DNA from: Klebsormidium nitens
Taxonomy: Eukaryota; Plantae; Klebsormidiophyceae
NCBI GenBank assembly: GCA_000708835.1
Contig: DF237439.1
Coordinates: 5,668-69,667, forward strand
Direction of reading: 5' to 3'
Length of the DNA stretch: 64,000 bases
The stretch's first letter is position 1; the number at the start of each line of letters is the position of its first letter. The translations under genes were made by a program, and so were the position numbers. Shown piece after piece: positions 1 to 16,912 of the stretch. The notes beneath the pieces were generated by a model that ran no database searches, had not been told where the DNA came from, and saw nothing but the letters and a program-made list of their open reading frames with translations.

Positions 1-756
1 CCGTGATCCCCTTCACACCGTCCTCCTTCATCCTACGGAGAGCGAGTAGGATGTGTAGCTTCTCCTCCTTGAGGGTAGCGTAGCCAGGGGAGGGTTTTAG
101 TGCTGGAGTCGGAGTCCTAGATCGACGATGGATCTTTCGTGATCTCGGGACGGAGACCAGGCTCGCGGTCTCGCTGTCCGACGCGAACATGGACCCTCTG
201 TCTCTGGGAGAAGGAGACCTCGCCGGTGGAAAACCGCCCGTACGTTGCTTCTGGGGATTGGCCAGATCATCGATCCCGAGCAGGTCGGGGTAGTGGGGTG
301 GTCTCCTTCGGACGTGCTCCCCCTCGGAGCCGTGCTCACTCGGGGCTCGTCCCCAAGCCCTTCCGGGGGCGAGGTCTGGGGTGCTGGACCTGTCCCGACG
401 TGGAGATGGGCTCCTCATGGTAGGTAATTCCTAGGAGGGTACTCGGCGCGACTGGGTTGCCTCTCGATCGGCCGCATGGGACCTTTCGGACGCTCCTCCC
501 AAGCAGGAGGCTGTCTCTCGTTCGGCCGCATGGGACCTTTCGGACGCTCCTCATTCGGACCCTCCCCAGCAGGAGTCCTCGGAGGTGGGTCGTCCAAAGT
601 GGGACTCGGGTTCATGTTGATGCTGACATTGAGATCCGGGCCCGTAGGCTGCGTGGCGATTCGGACGGTGCCCCCCTCACCCTCCCTCTTTACGGACACC
701 AGATTCTGCTGCGTTGGCTGCTTCGTTGGCAGTCCCTCTTGAGACTGCTGCTCCAT
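1..756 (-). pseudogene. NCLDV DUF5767-like protein, frameshifted, running off the window start
   Basis: ATG at 756 (MEQQSQ..). That frame stops at 415, but a second frame is open from 430 to base 1: ..PPHYPDLLGIDDLANPQK..GYATLKEEKLHILLALRRMKEDGVKGSR. This matches my recollection of the LAN-K and GY-x4-EK-x-x-LL-x-L-x-R motifs of this NCLDV family. One extra G at 430-431 (minus strand) joins the two frames. Confidence 0.55.
461..552. repeat. Two 38-bp near-identical copies, period 54 bp (in-frame ERPKGPMRP repeat)
   Basis: ctctcg(a/t)tcggccgcatgggacctttcggacgctcctc at 461-498 and 515-552. Confidence 0.9.
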
Positions 757-900
757 CTTACTCTTGTGAGCCCCATAAAAGATACCGAGCTTCGGACGCA
801 GCACTATAAAGTCGGGTCCAGGGCCCTCATTTCTTCATTCCTCCATAGACGCATACCGCGTTTCATTCCCCTCGATAATATTAGGTGCAGGGTAGCAGAT

Positions 901-1569
901 ATGGCGACCACTCAGACGAACAACCTGCCCGCGCAACAGGTGGTGGCCCCGAAGGCGAAGGTCACTAAGACGGTGGCGGGAACGAAGCGACAGAAGGTGG
1001 CGGCGAAGCCCGAGCAGATTCCTGCGGCAGAGACCGACGGGACGGCCTCTTCGGCACCACAGCCTCCGGCCACCGACATGACTATCCAGGAGGACGGGAT
1101 CATGGACACCGCGGTCTCCAGCGGCGATCCCGTCCTGGGCAAGCTGGACGAAATCATCAAGATGCAGACCAAGATGCAGAGGGCTCAGGCGAAGACCCAG
1201 AAGCAGGTGGCCCTGATCCTCTCTCTGCTGAATGCCGAGGAGGCCGAGAGCGCCGATGGAGAAGAACCCACCGTGGGCAAGAAGAGATCTCGGGCAGTGG
1301 CGACCAAGGCGAAGAAGGAGCCGAGTGGCTTTGCTAAGCCGAGCTATCTGAGCCCAGAGCTGTGCGAATTCTTGGACCTCCCCATCGACAGCCAGCTCCC
1401 TCGCACGGAGGTCACGAAGCGGCTGGTCGCCTACGTGAAGGAGCACGACCTCCAGAAGGAGTCCCCGAACGATCGCGCTTCGTCTTCAGGCCCCTCGTGC
1501 AGAGCGTGGAGAGGTTTCGGCTGGAGCTCGGGGGTTGCTCGAAGTTCCTGGGTTTCCCAGCAGGAGTGA
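901..1569 (+). pseudogene. SWIB/MDM2-domain protein, C-terminally truncated near 1477
   Basis: MATTQ.. followed by KKEPSGFAKPSYLSPELCEFLDLPIDSQLPRTEVTKRLVAYVKEHDLQK, the N-terminal part of a SWIB domain. Similarity ends after ..ESPNDR. Confidence 0.8.
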
Positions 1570-1730
1570 GTTCTTGGAACACCGAAGCAGCGAACGTCGG
1601 GGTGGATCCGAACGATCCGCTGTACGCAGGTGCGCTCGCTTCCCCCAACTACGCTAATCTCTTCGGGGACTCCTACGCCTTCCTCTCGTGCCCCGAGCTG
1701 AACACGAGCTTCCACGAGACCACCTACAAT
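1477..1730 (+). pseudogene. Fragment resembling NCLDV minor-capsid/penton-like proteins
   Basis: RFVF..FRLELGGCSKFLGF..SPNYANLFGDSYAFLSCPELN recalls the LGF..PN..NL.G..Y..L.CPE pattern. It has no start of its own and is flanked by two truncated genes. Confidence 0.35.
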
Positions 1731-2714
1731 CGAGCTGACCAGATGCGTCACTCCCTCCAACCTCCTGCCCTCGAAGAACCACTCGCCGGTGAGGACGGGC
1801 TTACGCGCCGAGAAAAAGGCCCCTAGATCCCCGGCGACGGCCTGTGGCCCGTGCTCCTCGTCGTTCCTGCCACGCAGAGTGAGATTTTGACCTGGTTCGT
1901 GCACCACCCCCAGTGCCTCCGAAGGCTCGAGACGGACGACGAAACCGTCCTCGAGTCTCAGGACGGCGGAGAAACCGTCCAGCAGAGTGGCGCTCCTCAC
2001 GTACTGAGCCTTTGACTGAGACAGAAAGCTGGGAATCACGCAGGTGTCGACGTAACCCGCTATGAGCCACTTCCGTTCTTCTGCACAGAGTATGGGGACT
2101 GCTTCTTCCCAGCGTGCCACGTTCAGGAACTTCATGATCTTCTTCTTCGAGTCAGGAGAGAGCGGGATGGCCTTGGCACAAGTGGCCCTGACGGCCGCCT
2201 GTACCGAAGACTGACAGCATCACAGAAAGTCCAAGATGACATCCCAGGCCTCCTGTGCTCCCTTTGCTACTTCTACTTTGGACCGCAACGAGCGCATCTC
2301 ATCCCCGCACTCAGAGTCTCCAAAGATCTCCTCTTCTACCAGCCCATCAAAGAGCAGATCCTCCAGCGATGATTCGAACGCCACTCGAGCGCTGCGAAAC
2401 GCCATGTGGGCCTGGACTGCAGAGTCCATACAGGTCTTCAAGAGCTGCTCTACTTGGTGATGGCTAGCTTTTGCGGAAGCCACGTCGCCGACCCACCAAG
2501 CTTCCCAAGCTTCTATCAGAGCGTCCAGAGCAGACCTATACAGAGGAACGACTTCTGCGACGCTGAGTTCATACTCGTGGGTCGGAGAGGCATAAACGGA
2601 CACCAAGTGTGCGTGAAGATCCTTTGACGTTATGTAAGAAGTCGGACTGCTGGGCGAAGGAGCGGCGGGCACCTTTTCGAAAAGACTCTCTACCTCGATC
2701 CGAAGACTCGCCAT
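1730..2714 (-). pseudogene. Hypothetical viral gene split by one in-frame TGA (2220-2222)
   Basis: ORFs 2220..2714 and 1431..2135 are in the same frame. The 28 codons between them are open (..ILDFL*CCQSSVQAAVRATCAKAIPLSPDSKKKIMKFLN..). Confidence 0.5.
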
Positions 2715-3635
2715 CGTGGCGTGGAGTTGAGATTGAAAGAATGGTCGGCTCGATATCAGCTTTTATACTCGTGACGTCCGAAAGAAATACCTCGTCCGAA
2801 AAGCGGCGTCCGAAACTCACCTTCTCGGCTCACTGCCACTCTTCCTGTTTTCTCCTTCTCAAGCTCTCCCGCAAACTCTCGTTGCTCTTCCGCCACTTCC
2901 TTCTCTGCCGCTCTTCACGTCCTCTCTTCAACCCCCTCAAATGCAGCATTGTCCGGCAGTCCAGAACAGCACCCCTGCAGCGGGCAGCCAAAAATCTTCA
3001 AGCAACCAATGTGAAACCGAGTTTCTGATGGTGCCTCTGTAAACCTTCATCACTTCCCTGCGAGATGCTATTCAATGCCATCCACGGACAGCCTGGGAGT
3101 ATACAGTCACCCTGCAAGGCAACCAACATTTTTGTGACAATATGGACAAGCCCGAATGTTGTAGAAGGCTGACAGATCTTGTTCCAAGAAAAGGTGACTC
3201 AGGAAGGCATGCTTACTTTTGTGGAAACACAATGCCAGCTTCGTCCAGCAATGCACAGATGTTGCCCTTGCCCACTGTTATTTGAATCTTCTTTTCAATC
3301 GACTGCCTTGACATGCTCCTATCCTATTTGCAGCGGCTATAATGTCTCTTCTGAAGGGTTCATTAATCTGCTGTAATTTCAAACATGCATGTTTCCCGCT
3401 CTTAGTAATCGCACCCTGACCAAGTACATTCGATACTTCCACCTCAAAGTTCCCCCGCCTGCCCTTACTAGCTCTGAGCCATGGTCCTGGCAACACTCTC
3501 CCCTCAGTGACGCAAGCCGCACATTGACACATGATGAAACCAAGCGGATATAGCTGCAGATCCTTACGGCAACGCTTCTTTCTTCCCGGTACAGGCTAAC
3601 AAGCTGGAAATATGGAGTCCTGTCACCGAAAGGGC

Positions 3636-4175
3636 TTAGCATCGCACTTCGACCGGGCACCAGAAAGGCCGCAGGTCTCGGCCGAGAGGCGCCCGGTCGA
3701 AGTATGCACTTGCACTTGCACTTGCAGTTGGCCGACCGGGCACCAGAAAGGCAGCATGTCTCGGCCGAGAGGCGCCCGGTCGAAGTATGCACTTGCACTT
3801 GCACTTGCAGTTGGCCGACCGGGCACCAGAAAGGCAGCAGGTCTCGGCCCTCCTTCCAAGCATGCTCCAATCAGTAGATTCACCATTACATTTCATGAAC
3901 TCCAAAGCCCTCTGCAAACGCTTCAAAACGCCAGTAGCGCTGACATCATCCAGGTCGGCCGCACGTACATCAGCGATCGTCGTCAGTCCCGCCCTATTGA
4001 ACAGTTCGAGCAGGCGGCCATGGCCAACAATCTTCAGATCGCCGAGATCAGCACTACCAGGCATGTTTTGCAATACAATCTCTGACAAAAGATCGAGTTG
4101 TTTACAACCGTCCGATGCGAGTAAGTTATGATAAGGCGAGTTCAGCCTAAACTCGTGCCCGAGACGGAATGACAC
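3636..4175 (-). pseudogene. Hypothetical protein disrupted by an 83-bp tandem duplication
   Basis: Protein-like for about 110 aa (LKIVGHGRLLELFNRAGLTTIADV.., possibly helix-hairpin-helix-like), then enters the 83-bp repeat and changes frame. Confidence 0.4.
3651..3850. repeat. 83-bp tandem repeat, about 2.4 copies, with internal inverted repeats and (TGCACT)3
   Basis: Units start at 3651, 3734 and 3817. acttcgaccgggc (3646-3658) pairs with gcccggtcgaagt (3691-3703). Palindrome tctcggccgaga at 3676-3687. Confidence 0.92.
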
Positions 4176-4490
4176 GTCACATACGGGTACGAAAGGGCTA
4201 CATTCATCATAGTGTCAACTGCTGACCTGTATATGACATCACTATCGTGGTAGGCCCACGTGAATTTCTAATCGGAACGGCTGTCCATCCGGTTGCTGAG
4301 TTGTCAAACCCCCAGCCTACTAGGGCAGTCCTTTCGTGGATATCAGGGCAGTCCTCTTGGAAAGTCTACAAAAGCAGATCAGGGGCCTGTTGCCTCCAAT
4401 CCATTTTTCAGAAACCTCGCACTTCTTGCCTCCAGCAACCACCTTCCATCTGTCCTTCCGTCTGCGGAATACAAGCCCTTGAACAGAATC

Positions 4491-4658
4491 ATGCCTGGAA
4501 AAACCCCCATGACAGGTGACGCCGCAGCCAGGATCCAGTCGGCCACCGCAAAGGCCGGTGATGGAGGGGTACCGAAAGGCAGCTTTGCGGCAAGGGCTCA
4601 AAGTGCAGCTGCTACCAATGTCAACACCAGCGGGTCCCAGCCTTCCGGAAAGAAGTAG
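4491..4658 (+). CDS. Small SMP/LEA-like (seed-maturation-type) hydrophilic protein, 55 aa
   Basis: MTGDAAARIQSATAKAGDGGVPKGSFAARAQSAAATN matches the MT.DAA.RIQS..GSFAARAQSAA family. A GTAAGT donor at 4666 suggests a 3'-UTR intron. Confidence 0.7.
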   Translation: MPGKTPMTGDAAARIQSATAKAGDGGVPKGSFAARAQSAAATNVNTSGSQPSGKK

Positions 4659-4749
4659 CTGCCGCGTAAGTATATGTTTGGGCATCTCTCTCAAGAATCT
4701 GCTTGTCAATTTGTTTGTGCAACCTGGAAGAGGTAGCTATGTCTATGAT

Positions 4750-5060
4750 ATGCACCATCTGAAAGACCGGAAGGTTCTGAGGAAGCCTGAGCTAACCATG
4801 TGATGCTTTCTGTATTCAGGACCTTTCGATTCTTGAGTCCCGTGGGATAGAGTTCTCGAGCAGGTTTGGGTGGACATTGTGAAGCTCCAGTAGAGGCGGG
4901 ATGCACTGCACCATCTCAAGAACTGTAGGGTCCTGAGGAAGCCTGAGCTAACATTGTGTTCCTTTGTTTCTTCAGGACCTTACAGTTCTTGAGATAGTCC
5001 CACGGCATGGAGTACTCAGCAGGGTTGGTTGGACATTGTAATGCTCAGTGGAGGCGTATT
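4750..5060 (+). repeat. Two diverged 156-bp units, each with a branch point, a pyrimidine tract, a CAG acceptor and a 23-bp stem
   Basis: gagctaac..ttcag|gacct at 4820 and 4976. Stem arms 4759-4781/4815-4837 and 4915-4937/4971-4993. Confidence 0.85.
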
Positions 5061-5440
5061 GTACTCGAGGTCTGAGGGACATATGACGCTTTGATTGGCA
5101 AGTACCAGGATAGTCGCATGGCCCAGACATGTTCTTGCCAGCAGGGTACGAGCAGCTATTTTTCTGCTGCATAGAAAGGGACAGAGAGTTATGCGGGACA
5201 TGCTGTATTCTGGCCATTGTTGAAAGTCTGTATCATTTTTTGATCAGGCGGCATGTTATGCTGATTACGCTGCATTGCATTGTGCTCGATGGGGTGTAAG
5301 GCTTGAAAATAATAATCTTGCTATATAGTACCCTTGGCATGCTAAGACAGGCACAATGTAGCATTATATGCAAACACTTGGTTCTGTTCGCAACTTTCGC
5401 TACCCTCGTGCTGATGCCGAATCCTGCCCTGTGTGGAAGG

Positions 5441-5863
5441 ATGATAAAATCCGATGGTGCTTTCGAGACATGGACCGATAAGATGGCAGATGCGAATGCT
5501 ACCAGGAAGACCATGTTTCGGGAGACGAAGTGCACGCCGTTCTGCGAGAAGGCCAAAGAGGGCCTCGAGAGAGGAAGCGAACGTTCCTATCTGTACTTGA
5601 AGGTGAAGGAGAACTCGCCATTCGATGCATATTTGCGCTCCGTACAAGGTGAAATCCTAGGAATCCTCGCGGAGGAAGGAGTGCAAAAACATGTGAGATG
5701 GCCTTACGATACGACCTCGATGGTGCTACGCATCAAGATTCCCATGAGTCACGGACGAATGGATGTGAGATGCTTCGATGCCGATTCTCATGATGCTCTA
5801 CCACCGGCTTCTATCGATGAATGTATGAATATAGCAGTGAAGATGGCCCTCTCCGAAACCTAA
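5441..5863 (+). CDS. Hypothetical viral protein, possibly an NCLDV OB-fold ssDNA-binding protein
   Basis: Intronless ORF. VLRIKIPMSHGRMDVRCFDAD resembles the LR.K.P..G.....FD.D segment of putative NCLDV SSBs. Weak similarity. Confidence 0.35.
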   Translation: MIKSDGAFETWTDKMADANATRKTMFRETKCTPFCEKAKEGLERGSERSYLYLKVKENSPFDAYLRSVQGEILGILAEEGVQKHVRWPYDTTSMVLRIKIPMSHGRMDVRCFDADSHDALPPASIDECMNIAVKMALSET

Positions 5864-5969
5864 GCAATCCGTTCCAAGAATTGCCACCGCCTTTACAACA
5901 AATCTCGCCGCGGAGAGATGGTGCGTCGACTTGGGGCACCCACCGAACACGTAGAAATTAAACCACGGC

Positions 5970-7133
5970 ATGATGATTCTCACGGCGAGCTCCGAGCGCG
6001 TTCGACAGGCGGTGACCAAGTGTTCGCGCGAGCTTTGGTCGCATCAGCTCGCGATGATACACCGTTGCATGAGGCTCGAGCGCGAGGGTCCCGTGTTTGG
6101 AACGTTGTGCGACCCCCCGGGAACCGGCAAGACGCATGCCGTGCTCGGGCTGGTGGCCGCGTCGTCAGGTAACGGCCTTACCGTGATCACGGTGCCACAC
6201 AATATTTCTCACAATGGCGACTCGCTCTGAAGGACTTTGAGCTAAAGGCGCTGACCGTCGTGAATTACGCGGATATATGCTCCCTCTTTTTTGAGTGGGA
6301 CCAACCGTTCAGGAGGGAGTTTTCTCCGCGACTAGAGGGGCTGGATCTGATCCTCGCCTCGGACGTGTGTTTCGATCCCCTCGCGAACAACCTGCAAGAA
6401 GTGGGGATCAAGGTGTCCAGGTTGGTCTTTGACGAAGCAGACACGATCCGCTATTGCGTTCGAAGCCTGGGGGACGCTCGGCATACGTGGCTCGTAACGG
6501 CTTCCTGGACCGAGAACGACGACGGTACTTGGAAGGGGCTACGGTCGGGGCGTCTCGACAGGGTGCAGTGCGAAGCAAACTTCATCGCTTCTAGCATCAC
6601 GTTGCCGATGCCCGTGTACTCGACCATCGTGTGTCGCAGCCTCCACACAGATGCTGTACTGCGGTACGTACTGGACGGAGAGGCACTGGAGGCCGTGAAC
6701 GCCCTGGACTACGCCAGGATCGTCTCGCGGCACAACCCCCGCGCGGTCACCAGCGACGTGGATGCTATAGACGTCCTGTTGAAGGACGCCGTAGGTGATA
6801 CCGAGTCGCTGGAAGAACGCTTGAGGAGCTGTCTCGCGGCGCTGCAGCGGCATGACATTTCGCCTAGGGACGTCAGAGTGTACGAAGCAGAGCGGGAGAG
6901 TGTCACGAGCGCGCTCGAGACTGCTAGGAGGACGGCAGACAACATCCGCGCTCGCCTTCGTGACGCCGAGATGTGTTTGATATGCTACGATGCATTGGTC
7001 GACATCGGGACGAAGGTGATGACCAACTGCTGCCAGAACACTTTTTGCTTGGAATGTGCGAAGGACTGGTGGAGGGGCTCCGCATTCAAGAATTGCCCCG
7101 TCTGTCGAGAGAGACGAGCCTTCGAGGACCTTG
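5970..7133 (+). pseudogene. Viral-type SNF2-family helicase with RING finger; 1-nt frameshift at about 6205; 3' end lost in assembly gap
   Basis: Q-motif LWSHQ, Walker A DPPGTGKT, motif Ia VPHNI(F)SQW (needs one extra T at 6205-6207), Walker B LVFDEAD, motif III LVTAS, and RING CLIC..CCQNTFCLEC..CPVC. Confidence 0.85.
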
Positions 7134-7433
7134 NNNNNNNNNNNNNNNNNNNNNNNNNNNNNNNNNNNNNNNNNNNNNNNNNNNNNNNNNNNNNNNNNNN
7201 NNNNNNNNNNNNNNNNNNNNNNNNNNNNNNNNNNNNNNNNNNNNNNNNNNNNNNNNNNNNNNNNNNNNNNNNNNNNNNNNNNNNNNNNNNNNNNNNNNNN
7301 NNNNNNNNNNNNNNNNNNNNNNNNNNNNNNNNNNNNNNNNNNNNNNNNNNNNNNNNNNNNNNNNNNNNNNNNNNNNNNNNNNNNNNNNNNNNNNNNNNNN
7401 NNNNNNNNNNNNNNNNNNNNNNNNNNNNNNNNN
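7134..7433. other. Assembly gap (300 N)
   Basis: N run. Confidence 1.
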
Positions 7434-7480
7434 TGCACGACGCTACTCAAGTATATTTTCCTCTCGTAAGTTACAGCGGC

Positions 7481-8491
7481 ATGATATCCGACGAAGAAGT
7501 GTACGACGCCGTTCTCGCACTGAGACCTCCGTTGGATCTTCTCCAGCGTGCCGTAGACGAACGCGGTTTCGAAGCACTCGACTACATGCTAGATAGGGAG
7601 TATGACGCGGATGAATCCCTGGAAGAAGCTATGGGGACCGCAGCGAAGCAGACATACGGAGAGCCCGTGGACGTCGGGAGTCTACCCAAGAGACTCGAGG
7701 CACTCGAAGAGCTAGATTCTTGGCGGTCGAAGCAACCGGAAAGGCTCAAGAGAGTCATCCTGTCGGGTGCTTCGCTGCTCGAAGGTGCAGTGAGACGTGC
7801 AGGTTGGACCAAGGCCGATCGCGCGGCTGGGAAGGCCATCGTGGACGCATTCGGCAACCAATCTTTCGTGGCTGCCCTGCGAGGCTTAGAGCTCGACAAG
7901 CGTTCTAAACGCCGGCACGAGGAGCTGCACGCTCCCGCTAGTGGATTCGTACAGATGACGACCCGTCTGAGGGGAAGGAACATGGGTCAGTTCGCGGATA
8001 ACCGGAGAGCGACGGAGTGGTGGACTTCGTCGCACGCGCACGAGCAACTGCGAGATGAACTCTACCGGAAGGAGTATAAGCCCCCACGTTACGTCTCGAT
8101 GCTGCGGTACTTCCTCGCAGCGGGTCTGCGTGCGCCCAGACACCCGAGAGGATTCACACGGCGGTACCTCTACCGCGGCACCGACCGAGTCAATCTGATG
8201 ATAGGTGCGTTGGAAACGACCAGAAAATTCCACGAAAGGTCCTTCTCTTCGTGGACGTGGGACGAGGACGTCGCAGCTTCGTTCGGAGACCGCACCTTGC
8301 GACTGCACTTGTCGGACATCAGGCCCGGAACACCCTGCGTCTGGTTCGGGCTCGGCAACGCGGCATCCCAAGTAGTAGGAGAACGGGAGGTGTTGCTGCC
8401 GCCCGGCAATTTCAGACTTCACAAGAAACAGGGACGCATCTATGACGTCGACTTCGAACCGGAACCCGACTTCATGCGGACGACTGCATGA
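7481..8491 (+). CDS. ADP-ribosyltransferase, R-S-E (ARTC / VIP2-C3-exoenzyme-like) class, about 336 aa
   Basis: C-terminal YLYRGTD (R), FHERSFSSWT (S-x-S) and GEREVLLPPGNF (E-x-E), in canonical order and spacing. The start is the first ATG after the gap, so the true start may lie upstream. Confidence 0.75.
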   Translation: MISDEEVYDAVLALRPPLDLLQRAVDERGFEALDYMLDREYDADESLEEAMGTAAKQTYGEPVDVGSLPKRLEALEELDSWRSKQPERLKRVILSGASLLEGAVRRAGWTKADRAAGKAIVDAFGNQSFVAALRGLELDKRSKRRHEELHAPASGFVQMTTRLRGRNMGQFADNRRATEWWTSSHAHEQLRDELYRKEYKPPRYVSMLRYFLAAGLRAPRHPRGFTRRYLYRGTDRVNLMIGALETTRKFHERSFSSWTWDEDVAASFGDRTLRLHLSDIRPGTPCVWFGLGNAASQVVGEREVLLPPGNFRLHKKQGRIYDVDFEPEPDFMRTTA

Positions 8492-8494
8492 TGT

Positions 8495-9016
8495 CTAGTG
8501 CAGACATGTCTTCACCGAAGCTCTGTCCTTGTATAGGTTCCTGGTCCAGAGACCGGCGCGGCTGAACTGGTTATCCTCTTCCATGATGCACTTTGGATTC
8601 TGGATGTTGTGCCCGTCCACCACCCACTGGGGCCCGATCCTGCTCAGGTCCAAGCTGGTCGTCTCTCCTCTCAACGAGCCCCTGAACTTGGATTCGGGCG
8701 CCGGAACTCCCTTCGATGCCCCTCGTGGCAAGACGAATGGCCCAGTGTCGCGCAGCAATGCCGAATTGGGTACGATACTGGCTCTGAGAACGTGTCCTGC
8801 GCGGTTGGTTATGCCCCGCATGATGGACTCTCTGTCGATCTGCTCCGAGCTATGCGGTGGAAATATGGCATCGCATGTGATGCCTGGAACCGTAGTATCC
8901 AGAGGGCATGCATCCCGCGCGTGATTGATCCTGTCCATGAAATAACGGCCCGGAGCGAGGCTCTGTTGCAATTGATAGTCAATGCTCTCCCTCAACGCCA
9001 TCACTACATTGATCAC
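8495..9016 (-). CDS. Hypothetical NCLDV-like protein with C-terminal R-x-G-x-x-TR motif
   Basis: Intact 173-aa ORF containing SLAPGRY.., IQNPKCI and FSRAGLWTRNLYKD; tightly packed with its neighbours. Confidence 0.55.
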   Translation of the reverse strand: MINVVMALRESIDYQLQQSLAPGRYFMDRINHARDACPLDTTVPGITCDAIFPPHSSEQIDRESIMRGITNRAGHVLRASIVPNSALLRDTGPFVLPRGASKGVPAPESKFRGSLRGETTSLDLSRIGPQWVVDGHNIQNPKCIMEEDNQFSRAGLWTRNLYKDRASVKTCLH

Positions 9017-9036
9017 AACAAAATATTTGCACCGGC

Positions 9037-9435
9037 CTAACGGATTATCACGGTAGCGGAGGGCCGGACTCTACCCATGTCGATAGCCGGTCTCTGGACT
9101 CGGCGAGTCGTGACATACTGTTTGTTTCTCTCTTCCACTCGCGTCGACACGCCTCCTCGAGCATGATTTTCGATCACTATATGATCGTAGAGAGAGCAAG
9201 GGCCATACTTGATATCAGTGGGAGGAAGGAGGTTTATGGTACCGAATCTTTCGTTTATCTGACCCCTCTCCTTGATATCCTTAGGATGCTTCGTAGCAGG
9301 ACGCGTCAGAGTGCTATCGATATCGATCTTACCGATACGACCTTCATTGCCCCTATAAGTGGAGCGCTCGATTAATTCCGTCGAGACACAAGGGATTTTG
9401 GGATCATACGTATTGAAAGGCTCACCGAAGCGCAA
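9037..9435 (-). CDS. Hypothetical NCLDV-like protein with RGGVSTR motif
   Basis: Intact 132-aa ORF with HARGGVSTRVEERN; 20 bp from the previous ORF. Confidence 0.55.
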   Translation of the reverse strand: MRFGEPFNTYDPKIPCVSTELIERSTYRGNEGRIGKIDIDSTLTRPATKHPKDIKERGQINERFGTINLLPPTDIKYGPCSLYDHIVIENHARGGVSTRVEERNKQYVTTRRVQRPAIDMGRVRPSATVIIR

Positions 9436-9697
9436 TTTAGTTTCCGTATTGACTAGCGACCCTGATGGTCGATATTGCGAATCGCACTGCTCATAGACAT
9501 TTCGACATTCCGTCGCAGGACACCTTCATAGGAACAGATATCATCGGAATATATTGATATCATATTATAATGATACATGATAAAGGCCTATATCGCATAC
9601 GTGTATACCGTGCATACTATAACATATTCCAGTAATCAAAGGCATCTGCCTGACCCTTTCGGAGATTTTCGAGAAACTGAAAGAGAACTGCCGGAAC

Positions 9698-10384
9698 GTG
9701 ACTGCAACCGAAGAGGCAGAGGAGGAAGAAAATGCAAAGGAGACTGCAAAGGTTGTCCAGTTGGCCAAGTGGGATCAGGTGGAGGTCAACCTGCCGACGT
9801 ACGAATCCCTGAAGGCGTTGTCTACGCTTACGAAGCAGCTTCCGAACATGAACAAGGTGTTAGAGTCGGTGAAAAACCTGTATATGCAGTTCTTTCCCGA
9901 TGAGCACGAGACTTTGCTCGTTCAGAAGAGTGTGGACTATCGCAACAAAGCCAGCAGTGAAAGGTGCAGCGTTGTCGGGAGGACGCCACGGCTACTAGCG
10001 GCTGAGGTGGCAATGGCTGCCTGGTTGCGTCAGGGGCGAAGGTGCTCGATCTGCGACATGCAGTGCGATTGGAACAGACTGTGCGGAGGGTGGGGCAGCT
10101 TTCCTCAGATAGACCGATCGGATGTCGCGGTTGAAACTTATGTGGGCAATTTTTCCTGGGTTTGTAGCAGATGCAACACGTTGAAGGGTCACTTCGTGGA
10201 ATTGATAAGGTACGATGAGTTGGCACTCGAGACCCTGCGCAGAATCGAAGAGAATTCCGAAGACACATTAGGGGACGACCTTGCAGGACAAGTGTTGAGG
10301 GAGATAGAGAGACAGTCGATGAGGGACACGTACGTAAGATCCATTGCGAAAGAGAAGGGGCCAAAAGGGCTTCGAAAACCGTAG
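9698..10384 (+). CDS. Zn-binding HNH/His-Me-finger endonuclease-like protein
   Basis: CSIC..IDRSD..YVGNFSWVCSRCNTLKG is the CxxC..DRxD..Y..N....CxxCN..K layout of endonuclease VII/HNH-type nucleases. The start codon is GTG per the ORF track. Confidence 0.6.
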   Translation: MTATEEAEEEENAKETAKVVQLAKWDQVEVNLPTYESLKALSTLTKQLPNMNKVLESVKNLYMQFFPDEHETLLVQKSVDYRNKASSERCSVVGRTPRLLAAEVAMAAWLRQGRRCSICDMQCDWNRLCGGWGSFPQIDRSDVAVETYVGNFSWVCSRCNTLKGHFVELIRYDELALETLRRIEENSEDTLGDDLAGQVLREIERQSMRDTYVRSIAKEKGPKGLRKP

Positions 10385-10787
10385 CCCTAAAATCCTAAAA
10401 CCGTAGCACAACAACCTTGGACGACCAAGATTTTTTTCTAAGATGTATTTGATACACCTGTCCGCAGCAATCGCACGCTTGTTGGCAGCCTGACGGACGA
10501 GGGCCCCAAGGGGGCGCACCCTCCCAGGGGGCACATCCTGGCAGGGCGCACGACGCTAGAGAGACGCAGTATACAGCTGGACGTCCTGATTTTTCTGCAA
10601 CTCTCTCATCTCCAACGTGCATCATGCGAATGTACATCATATGAATGCGTGTTCTGAAGTAACGATGCTACAGGATTCCATTCTTTCGGCCTCAAACATT
10701 TCTTCGTGGTGACGCTTTACTGGGTCATCAAAGAGGAATGTCTCTTACATGTTAACTTGGGCGAAAAGTCTCTAGCCGTATCTATCT

Positions 10788-11714
10788 CTAAGTTTTCCTC
10801 CCGGTCTTTCTTTTGCTGGACTTCTTTCCTGCTTTCTTCCTCGTGCTCGCAGACATCAGTGCTAGTAAGCCTCCGCCCACGGCCACGCCACCGCCGCCAC
10901 CACCTCCGCCGCCTCCACCAACCCCTCCTCTCCCACCGGCGCCGCCTCCACCAGCCGAGGAACGCGCACCTAGAGAAGTGCGTGGGCTGTTGGTACCGTA
11001 GGTAGCTGAGACGGAAAGTGAGGTCAGCGCCGAAACGAGGGGGCTCCCATCATAGGAAACCCGCCTCTGGCTCCCTTGACCCAAGGAACGTGGAGGGGGT
11101 AAGGCGTCGAGTTTCCTTCTCAAGCTATTCGAAAGGGGAGCTAAAGGTGGTGGGTTCCAAGGACGATTCTTGACTTGCGAATGCCTCATCGAGACTGCTG
11201 GTCTCGACCAGGCTCGAGAGGCTCCGCCGAATGGCGTCGCGGGTGCACTCTGCACCTTACTCGCCAGAGGACGCTCGCTCGACCACCACCAGTTTGGGCG
11301 CGACGAAAGCGAAGATCTGGAACTTTCGTCACCTGATACGGAACGTTCGGATAGGTCTTCGTCCTCGTAAGACGTACGGCTGCGCAACATTGCCACCTGC
11401 TCGGGGCTCAACGTGACAATCTCTGATTGACGGTAGTCAGGAATACCATCCGGTCTGCTTAGGACATTCTCACCGTCCCTCGCCCACGCATAGAGTGTTT
11501 CAACGGGTCTGATCGCGTCCTCTGGAATGATTCTTCTGTCATCGTATCCGTTGATACCTGCTTCTAGCCATTTCGGGACGTATCCATATCGGCGGCTTGG
11601 ATCGAAACCAGGGATGTTCCTTCTCAGTTGGTTGGTCGGCCGTGGAAACATCCTAGAGATATATATACATCGGAAGAAAAGAATTCCTGCACCTATATGT
11701 ATCTGGTATGACAA
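10788..11714 (-). CDS. Hypothetical low-complexity (Ser/Gly/Arg-rich, basic tail) protein
   Basis: 308-codon open frame; poly-Gly comes from a GGC/GGT tract at 10880-10950; no recognisable domain; the real start is probably the downstream MFPRP. Confidence 0.4.
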   Translation of the reverse strand: MSYQIHIGAGILFFRCIYISRMFPRPTNQLRRNIPGFDPSRRYGYVPKWLEAGINGYDDRRIIPEDAIRPVETLYAWARDGENVLSRPDGIPDYRQSEIVTLSPEQVAMLRSRTSYEDEDLSERSVSGDESSRSSLSSRPNWWWSSERPLASKVQSAPATPFGGASRAWSRPAVSMRHSQVKNRPWNPPPLAPLSNSLRRKLDALPPPRSLGQGSQRRVSYDGSPLVSALTSLSVSATYGTNSPRTSLGARSSAGGGGAGGRGGVGGGGGGGGGGGVAVGGGLLALMSASTRKKAGKKSSKRKTGRKT

Positions 11715-12334
11715 AGCTCATCCTCGCACTCGCAGTCATCTTCCTCAGTCAACATGTTTCATGTAGAGTCATCACCATTCATAACAATTGCAACACGAAG
11801 ATCTCGTGGGGTATAGAGGAGGCGCGAGGGATGCTGACGACCTCCCTCTCCAGAGAGCTGAAGCCCGGAGAGAGGTCTGCACCTATAGTAGTGCCACAAG
11901 GTTGTGGAGGTCGCATCTGGGACGATTCGAGTGAGCCGTACGCGCACACGATCGCCGAGTTCTTCATGGACGACGTGGGCGGCGATTACTACGACATCAG
12001 CATAGTAGACGGATTCGACACGGGCATCAGGTTCGCACCATCCTCAGAAAATTGCGACACGATAGAGTGTGCGTTCGATGCGAGAGCAGCATGTCCTAGC
12101 GAACTCTTACATCCTACCGGCTTTCCTTGTCTGAGTGCTTGCACCAAGTACGGGACGCCTCCTTATTGCTGTACGGGAGCCGACAACAACACTCCTGAGA
12201 AGTGCCCTGCTAACGAATGGTCTCTCTACTTCAAAACCCTCTGTCCGGATGCTTACACTTTCGCTTTCGATGACCCTACTTCGATAAGAGTCTGCAAGGA
12301 TGCTGCCTCGTACGAGATAACCTTCTGTCCCTGA
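11708..12334 (+). CDS. Secreted thaumatin-like protein (PR-5 family), intronless, 208 aa
   Basis: Signal peptide MTKLILALAVIFLSQHVSC, then ITIHNNC, GRIW, AEF, DYYDISIVDGF, CLSAC..YCC, FKTLCPDAYTFAFDD and YEITFCP. Confidence 0.95.
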   Translation: MTKLILALAVIFLSQHVSCRVITIHNNCNTKISWGIEEARGMLTTSLSRELKPGERSAPIVVPQGCGGRIWDDSSEPYAHTIAEFFMDDVGGDYYDISIVDGFDTGIRFAPSSENCDTIECAFDARAACPSELLHPTGFPCLSACTKYGTPPYCCTGADNNTPEKCPANEWSLYFKTLCPDAYTFAFDDPTSIRVCKDAASYEITFCP

Positions 12335-12336
12335 CT

Positions 12337-12636
12337 CTACACGTATTCGTCGCAATCTACATACTTCACCTGCAGATTCGTCATCACGCTGTCTTTGAGG
12401 AGGTGCACGCCTTCTCGCACATCCTGCTGATCCGGCGTTCCTCGAAAATCTTGCACCAAGACGGAGAAGGGTGAGGTGTAGACGGCGGCCCTCGTAAGAC
12501 CGGCGCTGTTGTCGTATGTGACCACCATGAAAGGGTCCTTGATCTCTCGCTCTTGGTCCAGGATAGTGAGGATGGCGTTCGCCACGCAGTCGTTGGAAGC
12601 TTGGATGGTCGTATTGCGGGCGCCTGAAGAAGCCAT
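12337..12636 (-). CDS. Hypothetical protein, 99 aa
   Basis: ATG at 12636; the stop lies 2 bp from the thaumatin stop (convergent pair). Confidence 0.45.
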   Translation of the reverse strand: MASSGARNTTIQASNDCVANAILTILDQEREIKDPFMVVTYDNSAGLTRAAVYTSPFSVLVQDFRGTPDQQDVREGVHLLKDSVMTNLQVKYVDCDEYV

Positions 12637-13906
12637 GTTTGCAAAGAACGTCAGATTGCAGAATGATGGAATGATGGGAATGATGGGAGAGGGGGCTAGG
12701 TGCTGTCTCTTATAGTAGTGGCGTCCGAAAAAAGGCCCCGTCCGAAACTTCAGACTTTTTTTCCTGGACAATAACAAACGAAGATGACTCGCCCAGGAGT
12801 TTCGGACGGCCGAGCCTTTGGCCTAGACCCTTACAGGCCCGTCGGGGCCATAGACGCCAAGGTCCTCCATGAGCTCAATCATACTGCAGATCGCAGTAAT
12901 ATGTCCGTTGGCCGTCAGTCATGGTACACTGAACAGATGTTCTGATTTCCGGAAATCGAAGTTCTTGACCCGCGCTATGGAAAACAGACAGTCTGTTTCG
13001 CGCAATAAGAAAATCTGTTTCACGCGCTGAAGACCAGACCGCCTGTTCACGACTACAAGAGTAATTTTTAAACCCTAAAGTGCAATAGGGCCGTTGTGGC
13101 ACTCTGAATCTTGACCGTCGATCGAGTTGACACCGAGCTGGGTGGCCTGCACAGAACGTGAACCAGAACATTGTTTAGTGTCAATTTCGGTTGGAGGATG
13201 TTGATTCGTCGGTAGGAAATACAATGTCGTTGAGAGGGGCTGCATGGGCGAACGCATCTGCCCCGGCGACTTGCACAACAGAGTATCACTGTCGAGGTCG
13301 CCCCGCAGACCCACATTGTATCGAGATTTCGGCGACCCCAAGAGTCGTGCAGCTTACGTTCGGCTGTACGTTCTGTCGTTTTCGGAGCCCTTTCGGAGTC
13401 CTTTCTCTACTCACTTTGATTCAATTCAATGTGTCTATCTTCCAAGCTTAAGGAATACGTCCCCAAAATAGTCGCCCCACGTTGTTATTGAACGTGACAG
13501 GACCCGTGTATCCCTACAATATGAGTTCCAATCGTGGAGATGTCGACGCGTGTCAGGGATCCGGTAAGCTGACCCACTTAAAGAGGATAATATGTCAAGA
13601 ACCTCTCCGAAACGAGAATAAAATCTGGCCGTGTATAGCAAAAGGAAGAACGCTTCACGCCAAGGGCTCCTGTTTGACCTTTACATTGGCAACAACTAAC
13701 AAGGCAAAGTAAGCATAAATAGCATGAGCCAGAACCTAGTAACGGCAGAAGTAAGAAGCTAGACAACGACAAAGACTCAGACAAGGACAAAGACTACAAC
13801 AAGAAGACATAGACAGAGACAGAAAGAAAGACGAGGATGAAGAGGGAAGAAAGAGGCAAAGATGAAGACAAAGACAAAGAGAAACGGAAACAAAGTCTGA
13901 TCTCAC

Positions 13907-14066
13907 GGTAGAGCGGAAGGGGCCCTGAACATTGAGCGCATCGTTGGTCCCGTCGAAGTAGATGCTCGCGGTGCACTGCTGTTCGAAGTCGGGGTTAGGC
14001 GCTGCGTAGAAGCAGAGCCCGTTGAAGTGGCCGATACTGTTGCCCGACAGGTCCGTCAGGCCAGCG
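13907..14066 (-). CDS. Internal exon of a spliced gene, dirigent/allene-oxide-cyclase-like beta-barrel
   Basis: Branch point GACTAAC, pyrimidine tract and CAG acceptor at 14067-69; GTGAGA donor at 13906. Encodes AGLTDLSGNSIGHFNGLCFYAAPNPDFEQQCTASIYFDGTNDALNVQGPFRST. Other exons not resolved. Confidence 0.45.
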
Positions 14067-14400
14067 CTGGGTTACGAAGAGAAAAACGGGTTAGTCGAGG
14101 TCAGCAACAGGGTCAGCAAACGAGGGGAAAACAAGTTTTGGGAACGATTGAGCTTAGTTTGCGAAGTACGATTAGAAGCACTGAGCCCGTTGGCGTTGCC
14201 GATGGTTTTGCCGGACAAGTGCGTCAGACCAGCGCTGGGTTACGAAGAGAAAAAATGGGTTAGTCGAGGTCAGCAACAGGGTTAGGACACGGGGTTAAAT
14301 GTGTATGGAAACGAGCCTTATTTGCGGAGAAGTATGGTTAAAGAGGTAGAGTCCGCTGGCGTGGCCGATAGTCGTACCGAACAGATCCGTTAAGCGCGGG
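14015..14400 (-). repeat. Three diverged units of about 167 bp (acceptor plus exon-start copies)
   Basis: Equivalent positions at 14021, 14189 and 14355. They encode LTDLSGNSIG, LTHLSGKTIG and LTDLFGTTIG. Confidence 0.85.
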
Positions 14401-16912
14401 TTTGCCAAGGGTTTTGAGTGTTCAGACAGGGTTAGTGAATATCAATCAAGGAAGGGAACGCGTCGACCTTGACTAGCGGTGATTATATCTTCAAGTAGAA
14501 AGTGGTTGACCATGACAGTCAGCCATGGCGAGCTAAAATTGATTCCTCTTGTAGCAGCGATCCAGAGGTGTCATACTGACATCCGATTCCGTGTTCCAAG
14601 TGTAAACCTGACGCCCATTGTTGACTTTTGTGTCCGCAGAAAGAGCTTGAACCGCTTTCCAAACTGGACCCTCGAAGTCTGAGTTCACGCCTATTGAACG
14701 GGCACAATTTCGAGCTTTCCCAAGCGATCGTATCTTCTTTTAGATTCCTCTTCTGTCGGTTGTCCACGTGGCTCGTGAACCAAAAGAGATGACGAATGCC
14801 CAGCTGATGTTACGCGTGCGATCCTGGAGAATTCGATCATCGCGCAAATGGGCGCCGGTTGAAACAAACCTTCAACAACGCCCATCCGAAGCGGCACTCT
14901 GATTTCTACCGGGCTACTGCAGCCGTGCCTTGTGAGGTACCCCATTGTGAAAAGCGAAGGGCCCAACAAAACCTCATCGTTCAGTCATTTGTTCGTTAGG
15001 TTTTCTATTCATTTCTTCCTCTGTTTGTTGAATGGTCATGTTTGGGATGCCTTTGAATGGTCATGCTTTAACCGCGGCAGCCTGCTCACCGGAAATAGGT
15101 GATGTCACCAAACTTGCTACCAGTGTTGGGCTGAGGGCCCAGCGATCCGTTGCTGACGTCAACCAGCTCCAGAATGGACAGGGTCGGCTGCGAATAAAAT
15201 TCGATTCTTGCTGTTAGTCAAACGAACAACTTCGAAATCAACGAGTAAATTGCTTGAAACGAGGACCCAGGGGCGTTTTTGATCTGCATCTACATGACCA
15301 ATGCACTTTCTGATGTGACGCCGCTCCTTTTGACTGTAGAAAATAAGCCTTAGAGCTAGTGAAAGTTCCAGTGGATATTCACACGCAACTTTTGGATCTG
15401 AAGACGCAGGCCTCACAATCGAGCGTCGCAGTTTCCCGCAATGGGAAGCTGCAGTGTCTCCGATTAAGCTACATAGGGTCAGATACAGTCAGGAAACTGC
15501 CAACCCCTTCGAGTCATTCTCATTATCATCCCTTCAGCGTTCCCCTTCTGAGAAAAGTGCGGTTCCGAGTATATCAAACGGCCCCTACATTAGCCGGACC
15601 CCTCTCGAGCGCTTCACTGGTCTTTTCAAACCCGAGAATCACATCAATTTGGAAGTTGGGCTTAAATAGAACGTTTACCCTCCGTGACCAATAGCCGACC
15701 CACCGTTTCGCACGTATATCAAAGAATGTCTAATGATTCCCTTCTAGCGTATGACTCACTTTCCAAGCCGCCTAGCCTGAGCTTCTATATTGAGTGACCG
15801 TATCAGAGTCAGCCAAGGATATCGACGTACTGTGACTAGTTATGTTACGGTGTTATCATTTGAACTACGTAAATGAGCGCCACATATCAAAATATTCAAT
15901 CTGAAGGGCCGCGTGCGCGTTTATTTGCGGTTGCATGGCCGGGGGATGGAACACAATTAAAGCTAGTATAGACACGCTGCATGCCGGAATTGATCGTGCA
16001 TGTCGAGTCGTTTCGAGTCATTCCGATCGAGTAACTGTGTGCCGTGAGTTGTGTGCTCTGATTGTGTCGGATTGTGATCCGATGATCGGATCCCGCCCAC
16101 ACGAATCGCGGCAGCCCGCCCACAGCAATCGATCATTGAACCCGCACATTTATTGTAGCATGGTAGATGCAGACCCAACCGTCGACTTGTCATAGCCTGA
16201 GAGTCCTATGAGGCTACGACTATTAGCCAGACAAAGAGGCGCAACAATCAATCATATTGATTGACTGATGCAATGAGGTGTAGTACAAAATGATCGATCA
16301 CAGTCACGAAGTCAAGTATAAAAACGTTTTATCAGCAGCGCTGCCGCTGTTGATGAAATCGATGGTTACTCGCAATCAATTATGTCTGCTGCAAACAAAT
16401 CGCAGAATTCTACCGACCACTTGCATCTGTCTCAAAACAAATTTACCTTCTTCAAGCTCACCCCACTATGTTAACTTTGCACAGCCTTACCAGTAATGGG
16501 TACCACTGAGATCTGCATATATGGCCGTCGACAGTCTACTGTACTTACTAACCTCGCTTTGACGAAACCTGCCTACCACAATGTTTGAATCTTACGACAC
16601 GTGTTCTTGCATGTCTGCAGCAAATTTAGCGATGGTCCAACACCTCTATTGCTCCGATTGTGGCACTAAAAGCTACGTCATTTTTGCCCACGCACTCGAC
16701 CTATACCACGTTTATATCGGCCCTGAGGAACCAAGTATGCTGTGCAATGCTTCTTATCCCCAAGCTACTGTAGTCACACGCTTATATATTCACACTATTA
16801 TGTACGATATTAAAAATCCACTACTCGCCGAACCGCCCACGTTTCTACCGCCCAAGTTTGAATTACATACATCGGAACAATATGTACACGCGCGCTCTAG
16901 TAAACGAAGTGA

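Follow-up and report, generated by a model that had tools for sequence, protein, structure and literature searches.

Results

Virus-like genes at the left end of the window

We analysed 64,000 nucleotides of contig DF237439.1 of Klebsormidium nitens (assembly GCA_000708835.1, positions 5,668 to 69,667); this whole stretch is called the window here. Klebsormidium is a soil green alga of the streptophytes, near the ancestry of land plants. In the left part of the window, up to approximately 12.87 kb, we observed packed genes which likely derive from a giant virus (Nucleocytoviricota) and which run into an intron-rich host region. A preliminary description of this DNA had spoken of tightly packed, intronless open reading frames (ORFs) forming the right end of an endogenous element. 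The packing was borne out, with approximately 14 ORFs on both strands within 1-12,640. Coding density was 88% in 1-2830, 95% in 5854-7133 and 75% in 7434-12872, figures that rest on our own choice of ORFs. The GC content of 1-12,640 was nearly the same as that of the remaining window. Family scans (Pfam and others) covered the first 20 kb, and the Pfam scan of the virus-like block comprised 19 frames. At E<1e-5 three of these 19 were named by Pfam, namely a half SWIB domain, a RING finger and a thaumatin. The NCBIfam scan of the frames gave nothing above cut-off, Rfam gave no match in 1-20 kb and no tRNA was found in the window.

The window was compared with contigs of sequencing runs, which were used as evidence of presence only. 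Three runs (X1, X3 and X4) come from one sample, possibly the source of the window, and their contigs were assembled from short reads. Run X5 is recorded as a soil metagenome and belongs to another study and another year. The RNA-type runs X6, X9 and X13 come from three studies, and splice joints were counted by the number of these three runs in which they occurred.

ORF 8495-9001 and the ADP-ribosyltransferase

The ORF at 8495-9001 (minus strand) encodes an intact protein of 168 aa, whose family is found in Nucleocytoviricota. Its top clusters in the ESM Atlas were 99-100% viral (score 0.96-0.97, 30 of 30 matches), and Nucleocytoviricota were the commonest assignment. The relatives of this ORF are without a name and 86-96% identical, and a scan of IMG/VR gave no match to it.

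The gene at 7481-8491 (plus strand), open from ATG to stop, encodes a predicted mono-ADP-ribosyltransferase (ART) of 336 aa. It consists of a helical N-domain (residues 1-150) and an R-S-E catalytic domain (residues 166-327) with R232, S257-W258-T259 and E301-R302-E303. Residues R232, E301 and E303 were invariant in all 26 aligned sequences, and in a profile alignment with ExoT the protein matched the RG and STS motifs of the latter. The model obtained with relatives reached a predicted local distance difference test (pLDDT) of 91, and the single-sequence fold a pLDDT of 35. Residues 166-327 matched ARTs of the C3/ExoS/VIP2 class with Z of 11-13; for the helical N-domain the best match had a Z of 7.5 and was not a clear one. 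The enzyme is intact and had been rightly named beforehand. The best viral fold match in BFVD was M376R of chlorovirus MT325 (E 4.6e-8). We take the ExE motif to mark arginine specificity, and the enzyme is predicted to transfer ADP-ribose from NAD to arginine. The nearest relatives of both ORF 8495-9001 and the ART are Nucleocytoviricota.

There were 29 relatives of the ART at E<=1e-3, all of them listed, and the environmental ones were 40-45% identical. The 19 that were looked up besides the gene model of the window have at most the label 'hypothetical protein' and come from ENA, Logan or JGI/IMG. The family is unnamed, comprises approximately 30 clusters and shows a GTP(W)xWF motif. Distant relatives were found in seven IMG/VR loci, three giant-virus-like (L001, L002 and L003) and four taken as phage, where the phage call rests on the examined locus L006, while L004, L005 and L007 are unannotated and show the same 30% match. 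The ART of locus L001, which has a K+ transporter, a deiminase and a C5 methylase as neighbours, was matched by the profile with 98.7% probability. At L002 and L003, located on one contig, the neighbours are RNR, TBP and mRNA triphosphatase. A word search with the ART gave 0 matches, PDB by single sequence also 0, and the alignment found no match in the JGI metagenome or GTDB sets. As a separate observation, L002:9707-10705 and L003:11928-12983 lie on one 60-kb Algavirales-like IMG/VR contig with at least two related ART-like genes. The longest ENA contig is 358,175 nt for both P0007 and P0012, possibly one giant-virus genome.

The public gene model P0002 (KFL_004900030, Klebsormidium nitens, 624 aa) matches the ART at 100%. 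Compared with window positions 5440-8491, it joins the ORF at 5339-5863, a part of the helicase-RING gene described below and the ART across an assembly gap of 300 N (7134-7433). This three-gene fusion is likely a mis-annotation. We consider the ART a separate gene from 7481, because its 45% identical relative P0003 starts at the position of ATG 7481, and because the sequence that an X1 contig has before 7434 is similar to the intergenic stretch 10500-10546 (joint 10546->7434). A fusion of RING and ART (a '627-aa' ORF) was rejected, as it crosses the 300-N gap.

The thaumatin gene

The gene at 11708-12334 (plus strand) is open from ATG to stop and encodes a thaumatin-like protein of 208 aa (Pfam PF00314, E 9e-36, 123.9 bits, cut-off 27.4), as had been claimed. 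Neither this frame nor that of the ART is interrupted in a way that would suggest an intron. The protein has a hydrophobic N-terminus (judged by eye) and 14 cysteines, and it is approximately 25 residues shorter than plant thaumatin, the loss being in the N-terminal half. In antifungal thaumatins of the PR-5 type, the full acidic cleft is made up of R, E, D, D and D, and the cysteines number 16. When aligned with solved plant proteins, the protein of the window keeps the four acidic residues E84, D96, D101 and D181, but the segment with the cleft arginine is absent.

The four closest thaumatins are 56-68% identical, share the shortened N-terminal half and are unnamed ENA or Logan proteins. One thaumatin cluster contains JGI/IMG contigs of 25-27 kb together with a further gene from K. 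nitens, whose contig measures 3.3 kb. Scans with the thaumatin gave only three matches (29-32%), one on an RNA-virus-like contig and two on prokaryote-like contigs. A 29% thaumatin-like match (L008:9749-10513) is located in an 18.6-kb IMG/VR contig with closterovirus-type RNA virus genes (RdRp and Hsp70h, recognized by eye). In another K. nitens gene model, P0044, a kinase-like piece and a thaumatin are fused, which is similar to the joining of genes in P0002.

The right edge and the host flank

The virus-like block is physically joined to the host chromosome, which is supported by two contigs spanning the edge. The X1 contig over 10946-17914 (6,969 nt, 0 differences) and the X4 contig over 11524-13649 carry the thaumatin gene into host DNA, in agreement with the claimed join. 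These contigs confirm the assembly and not an independent culture, because they come from a single sample which may be the source. Our best estimate of the right edge is 12872/12873, where an X5 contig has a loose end and the composition turns host-like. Markov scores of 500-nt segments were negative from 12.5 kb onward, although the training was partly circular. The element had been drawn to 13.4 kb; the last virus-like feature sits at 12.7-12.9 kb. No long repeat near 12.9 kb was found within 1-20 kb.

The ordinary intron-rich neighbours that had been noticed were confirmed by a Rieske oxygenase-type gene (16359-20000, minus strand), which continues beyond 20 kb. Pfam identified Rieske (E 1e-14) and VanA_C, four spliced joints occurred in all three RNA-type runs and a poly(T) loose end was located at 16359. 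The introns of this gene contain repeated exon-like blocks at 18866-19127 and 19970-20600 (119-nt spacing and longer). In the RNA runs these blocks are matched as well by a transcript that is related and belongs to this gene family. The first gene past the edge is a host-like gene with small exons at 13920-14400 (minus strand), with repeats at approximately 168 nt spacing. Further to the right, long frames at 33443-46700 look by eye like an intron-bearing host gene of the F-box/SNF2/RING type, including an 853-aa frame at 35830-38388. An intronless 310-aa cysteine-rich repeat frame at 58431-59360, presumably stigma-specific STIG1-like, lies in a CpG-normal stretch near a gap of 585 N.

A host-like island between the virus-like blocks

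Positions 2831-5853, overlooked in the preliminary description, form a host-like, CpG-poor island between virus-like blocks, of which several related copies occur in the sample and which has breakpoints at both ends. The observed/expected CpG ratio was 0.64 for 2900-5330 and 0.91-1.16 in the virus-like blocks. The island contains a transcribed and spliced gene (4382-5214, plus strand) with a 310-nt GT..AG intron at 4666-4975, after the stop codon. The joint 4665-4976 was found in 3 of the 3 RNA-type runs, from three studies, with no other letters, and it was unlisted in the DNA runs. Hence the description of the whole block as intronless stood for the packed ORFs but failed for this gene. As identical copies could be present at other sites, the transcript does not necessarily stem from the one in the window.

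The island gene encodes a 55-aa SMP/LEA5-like peptide at 4491-4658, which reached 21.6 bits for Pfam SMP (PF04927; cut-off 22, E 2.7e-4) and 27.3 against 29.1 for Ifi-6-16. A scan with the SMP-like peptide gave two identical bacterial-type loci, and a literature search for SMP together with giant viruses found no paper. The SMP-like peptide at L011:9960-10150 is 76% identical over 29 aa and lies upstream of an ATPase/PAPS-reductase-like cluster; this cluster is bacterial-type and looks like a defence island (labels given by eye). In the window, a direct repeat of 156-nt spacing and a 31-nt inverted repeat (4751-4998) overlap the SMP-like gene at its intron, and one RNA run showed a second acceptor near 4820. 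Two more ORFs were found here: a broken one at 3636-4064 (minus strand) with an 83-nt tandem triplication (3650-3849) and no family match, and a 174-aa ORF at 5339-5863 (plus strand) with no firm family match (X5 97.7% over 5503-5856).

Contigs of the RNA-type runs X6, X9 and X13 covered the island gene and the Rieske gene (8 of 30 bins each). None lay on the SWIB, helicase-RING, ART, ORF 8495-9001 or thaumatin genes, but these are presence-only data and do not imply silence. In the same way, the absence of any listed RNA run for 7434-16000 proves nothing.

Contigs of X1, X3 and X4 read on with other letters after 1464 and differ before 5854. These same-sample contigs vary in their letters at many places and diverge at the two positions, so further copies related to this stretch are present at other sites of the genome. 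In total, related copies continue differently at 1464, 2830, 5853, 9522 and 12872. The stretch 1-12.87 kb is a mosaic in which virus-like pieces surround a host-like island. Of the claimed 'right end of an element' the join to the host thus holds, whereas a clean end is contradicted by this patchwork around a transcribed island. Intact genes (ART, thaumatin) stand beside broken ones (SWIB cut, helicase-RING frameshifted), as had been described. The gene set of an intact latent provirus was not found: SWIB is truncated, helicase-RING is frameshifted, the ORF at 9040-9525 is startless and there are several breakpoints.

A close relative in a soil metagenome

Contigs of X5 covered 19 of 30 bins, every one within 1-13,340. 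Ten long pieces were 86.6-99.8% identical to the window, five of them at >=99%. There was one contig per listed place, and the longest had 4,877 nt. The X5 contigs turn to other sequence after 2830, 5856, 9522 and 12872. These genes, the thaumatin gene among them, therefore also occur outside the window, in a different arrangement and with another right neighbour. The match suggests recent mobility and stops short of proving a free virus. X5 had no coverage on 13,341-20,000 (10 of 10 bins) and on the ART bin 7338-8004, even at 80% likeness. Such holes are those of a shallow, filtered assembly, and their fit with a host-free virus was not counted as evidence.

Other ORFs and putative promoter motifs

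In the first virus-like piece, an ORF that runs off the left window edge (1-418, minus strand) had no Pfam, NCBIfam or PHROG match, and X5 was 99.4% identical over 1-497. It is followed by a 113-aa Pro-rich ORF with an internal repeat of 54-nt spacing and no family match (415-756, minus strand). The SWIB-domain gene (901-1464, plus strand) is cut in the middle of the domain: the claimed domain was matched (E 1e-8), but only by half, at profile positions 2-40 of 74. Past the cut its frame extends to 1569 through unrelated sequence. A likely 3' fragment of another gene (1465-1826, plus strand), with no ATG of its own and no family match, is joined to the SWIB stump. This fragment is overlapped by the 3' part of a 234-aa ORF (1431-2135, minus strand) without a Pfam, NCBIfam or PHROG match. 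The next ORF, of 164 aa (2220-2714, minus strand), is intact, and an X5 contig was 99.1% identical over 1785-2830.

The gene at 5918-7133 (plus strand) is helicase-like with a RING finger, has a Walker A motif and a DE box, and its 3' end lies inside the gap. Pfam gave zf-C3HC4_3 (E 2e-6) and weakly AAA_11 (E 0.002), and X5 was 99.4% identical over 6339-6993. For the gene announced as SNF2-RING, the RING was thus confirmed; for the SNF2 part Pfam offered only the weak AAA_11, and we take the 'SNF2-type' label to denote a resemblance. A frameshift near 6200-6230 is real, since a source-sample contig over 6014-6605 has no difference. Scans of IMG/VR with the helicase-RING and SWIB genes gave no match.

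A frame at 9040-9525 (minus strand) has no start codon and is likely a 5'-truncated gene; an X5 contig was 86.6% identical over 8947-9522 and then had other letters. As a candidate paralogue of ORF 8495-9001 it was ruled out (probability 0.4%). The frame at 9623-10384 (plus strand, first ATG 9848) is endonuclease VII/HNH-like. The HNH claim is weak here, with PHROG 1035 (endonuclease VII) at E 1.6e-5 against a Pfam E of 0.11. Purifying selection on this ORF was considered but not adopted: it has at least 29 differences to X5, and among the 29 listed 14 fall at third positions (p = 0.07). The last two ORFs are a Ser/Gly/Arg-rich one of 287 aa (10788-11651, minus strand), linked to the thaumatin gene by the X5 contig 11210-12043, and the last virus-like gene, an intact 99-aa ORF (12337-12636, minus strand) with no Pfam, NCBIfam or PHROG match.

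The putative promoter motif TCGGACG-N4-9-TATA occurs at 792-808 (plus strand, upstream of the SWIB gene), 2764-2781 (minus strand, upstream of the ORF at 2220-2714) and 12711-12728 (minus strand, upstream of the ORF at 12337-12636). These are its 3 matches in the window, all within virus-like blocks, where 0.04 were expected by chance; the test is partly circular, because the pattern was derived from the same three sites. In IMG/VR the motif gave single matches in the best 80 of 120 loci, and those were without a tblastn or blastn match to the window.

Discussion

We consider it likely that bases 1 to approximately 12,870, joined to the host, are a decayed and reshuffled flank of a giant virus (Nucleocytoviricota) which entered Klebsormidium recently, and one of several such copies. 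The virus was probably on the chlorovirus/phycodnavirus side. The endogenous origin proposed earlier is supported by the clusters of ORF 8495-9001 and by the M376R match of the ART. Several observations weigh against this explanation. Direct evidence for a virus comes from just these two ORFs; the 'recognition' value of the Atlas for ORF 8495-9001 is below the level at which its high score would be strong evidence, and the top ESM Atlas matches of the ART are bacterial and phage clusters. Among the 19 frames, 16 have no Pfam match at E<1e-5, most ORFs are orphans, and Pfam found no family match to MCP, PolB, A32 or VLTF3; the element continues beyond the left edge of the window. The bridging contigs were built from short reads of one possibly-source sample and are not independent. 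Furthermore, a purely viral block would not predict the island, which is host-like and transcribed and is found in X5 too (99.8% over 3036-3640).

The proposed course of events is as follows. A virus would have integrated during infection, after which deletions and illegitimate recombination may have stitched distant pieces together. Viral genes of Klebsormidium nitens were reported to be enriched for methylation (PMC12344493, PMC11244446). By analogy with these genes in general, the virus-type genes of the window are probably silenced by cytosine methylation. In the ancestral virus, the ART may have been aimed by its helical N-domain at a host protein inside the infected cell, like the phage Alt/Mod enzymes, and SWIB and helicase-RING are predicted to have acted on host chromatin. 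The thaumatin, once secreted, would attach to the beta-1,3-glucan (callose) of the wall, or loosen it, when the virus enters or leaves. Callose in Klebsormidium is reportedly the subject of a published paper.

The type of insert is ordinary. Giant-virus DNA in Klebsormidium has been on record since 2017, and both ART and thaumatin genes are already familiar from giant viruses. According to the survey of 2017, PolB, A32, MCP and VLTF3 are each present five to six times in the genome; these copies are phycodnavirus-like and rearranged, and they were interpreted as insertions (PMC5294986). The insertions were divergent with rearranged gene order, and in the part of the survey available to us a host-virus junction is given for one core-gene contig only. 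The element described here comes from the same alga (Klebsormidium flaccidum/nitens in that survey) and also belongs to several divergent, rearranged copies. Both sets carry plant-like wall-protein cargo, namely an expansin, read as wall-loosening, in other viral contigs (PMC5294986) and a thaumatin here. The survey dealt with core-gene contigs, whereas the present stretch has no core gene among the frames scanned, shows a junction and adds the ART, the thaumatin and the expressed island.

The element also resembles the punuivirus of Chlamydomonas reinhardtii, another giant virus whose DNA is integrated in a green alga (10.1101/2024.09.03.611062), in showing little compositional contrast with the host and a mixture of virus-type and spliced host-like genes (10.64898/2026.10.09.758095). 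According to the text available, that virus is complete at 617 kb and bounded by terminal inverted repeats; its production of virions was shown, and its promoter motif is AT-rich. In contrast, the present element is a fragment in a streptophyte host, with broken genes, no edge repeat and another motif.

According to the text of PMC9503650 available to us, approximately 10% of nucleocytoplasmic large DNA viruses (NCLDVs), chloroviruses included, encode ARTs, mostly of the Alt/VIP2 family. Our ART shares with those of chloroviruses and mimiviruses the R-S-E fold with ExE, as a stand-alone gene in a giant-virus setting (PMC9503650). It is only 21% identical to M376R of MT325 and has an extra helical N-domain of 150 residues. 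A thaumatin-fold gene in giant-virus DNA is likewise known from phaeoviruses and their inserts (PMC11890097). In one brown-algal insert, as far as the available text shows, the thaumatin was the only phaeovirus-orthologous gene expressed (PMC11890097).

That brown-algal case lends some support to the idea that the host domesticated ART and thaumatin against fungi, bacteria or competing viruses, as does the fact that both genes are intact beside broken neighbours and that the thaumatin retains a hydrophobic N-terminus and E84, D96, D101 and D181. We consider domestication improbable, since unrelated ORFs (2220-2714, 8495-9001 and 12337-12636) are equally intact, as in a young insert, the X5 identity of 99% leaves little time for decay, and both gene types are ordinary giant-virus cargo in frames not interrupted as if by an intron. 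The two genes have likely stayed intact owing to the youth of the insert and not through use by the host. As known giant-virus genes they were more likely of use in infection than to the host, and the suggested cargo for modulating the host or its competitors was overstated. It is very improbable that the region is not viral at all but a multicopy or transposon-derived host region with orphan genes. The related copies in the sample and the transcribed island inside would suit such a region, SWIB, RING and thaumatin are common in plants, and a hallmark gene is absent among the 19 frames. However, these frames showed no transposase, reverse transcriptase or helitron domain and no terminal repeats were found; ORF 8495-9001 and the ART point to Nucleocytoviricota, and the four closest thaumatins are not annotated plant genes. 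A contaminating free virus mis-joined to the host contig is hardly credible. The scaffold gap inside the block and the near-identical soil DNA would permit it, and so would the single junction of the 2017 survey (PMC5294986, in the part available), but unbroken X1 and X4 contigs span the edge, the source DNA carries a frameshift and truncations unlikely in a replicating virus, and one sample holds several divergent copies.

A further reading adds to the decayed-flank explanation and does not replace it. The donor virus, with the captured island, might still be active, free or latent, in soil Klebsormidium, so that the present element would be a recent defective deposit and X5 the virus; we regard this as possible but rather unlikely. 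X5 comes from a separate study and year, has contigs across 1-12.9 kb with an arrangement and right neighbour different from the window, and ties the 287-aa ORF to the thaumatin. Environmental contigs carry relatives of ORF 8495-9001, ART and thaumatin, and latent giant viruses of Chlamydomonas have intron-bearing, host-like latency genes (10.64898/2026.10.09.758095, as far as available). Against it, the CpG-poor island is found in X5 as well, with an identity of up to 99.8%. X5 further has letters and the replacement of 4367-4456 in common with another source-sample copy, and at 1428 it has the window's letter. These three points fit better with X5 being a closely related algal strain with its own inserted copies. 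Moreover, X5 is one sample of short contigs whose onward sequence is readable for 30 letters only. We would sooner doubt than expect the broader proposal that a streptophyte giant virus is active in soils and integrates repeatedly, carrying an arginine ART, a shortened thaumatin directed at the algal wall and a captured desiccation-type peptide gene, spliced and transcribed by the host, that would serve in latency. If it were true, X5 would hold the genome of this virus and would be a direct route to the first giant virus isolate of a streptophyte. Our literature searches found no such isolate and no paper on soil giant viruses, Algavirales and streptophytes combined, and according to the available part of the 2017 survey, streptophytes had no reported giant virus by then (PMC5294986).

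In summary, the likely giant-virus flank offers a second type of view of the host-virus junction, observed on only one contig in the 2017 survey, and it includes an expressed island. Correcting the public 624-aa gene model yields an ART that stands alone, can be tested and belongs to a family without a name. The 99% match in soil makes it testable whether a giant virus of streptophyte algae still exists.

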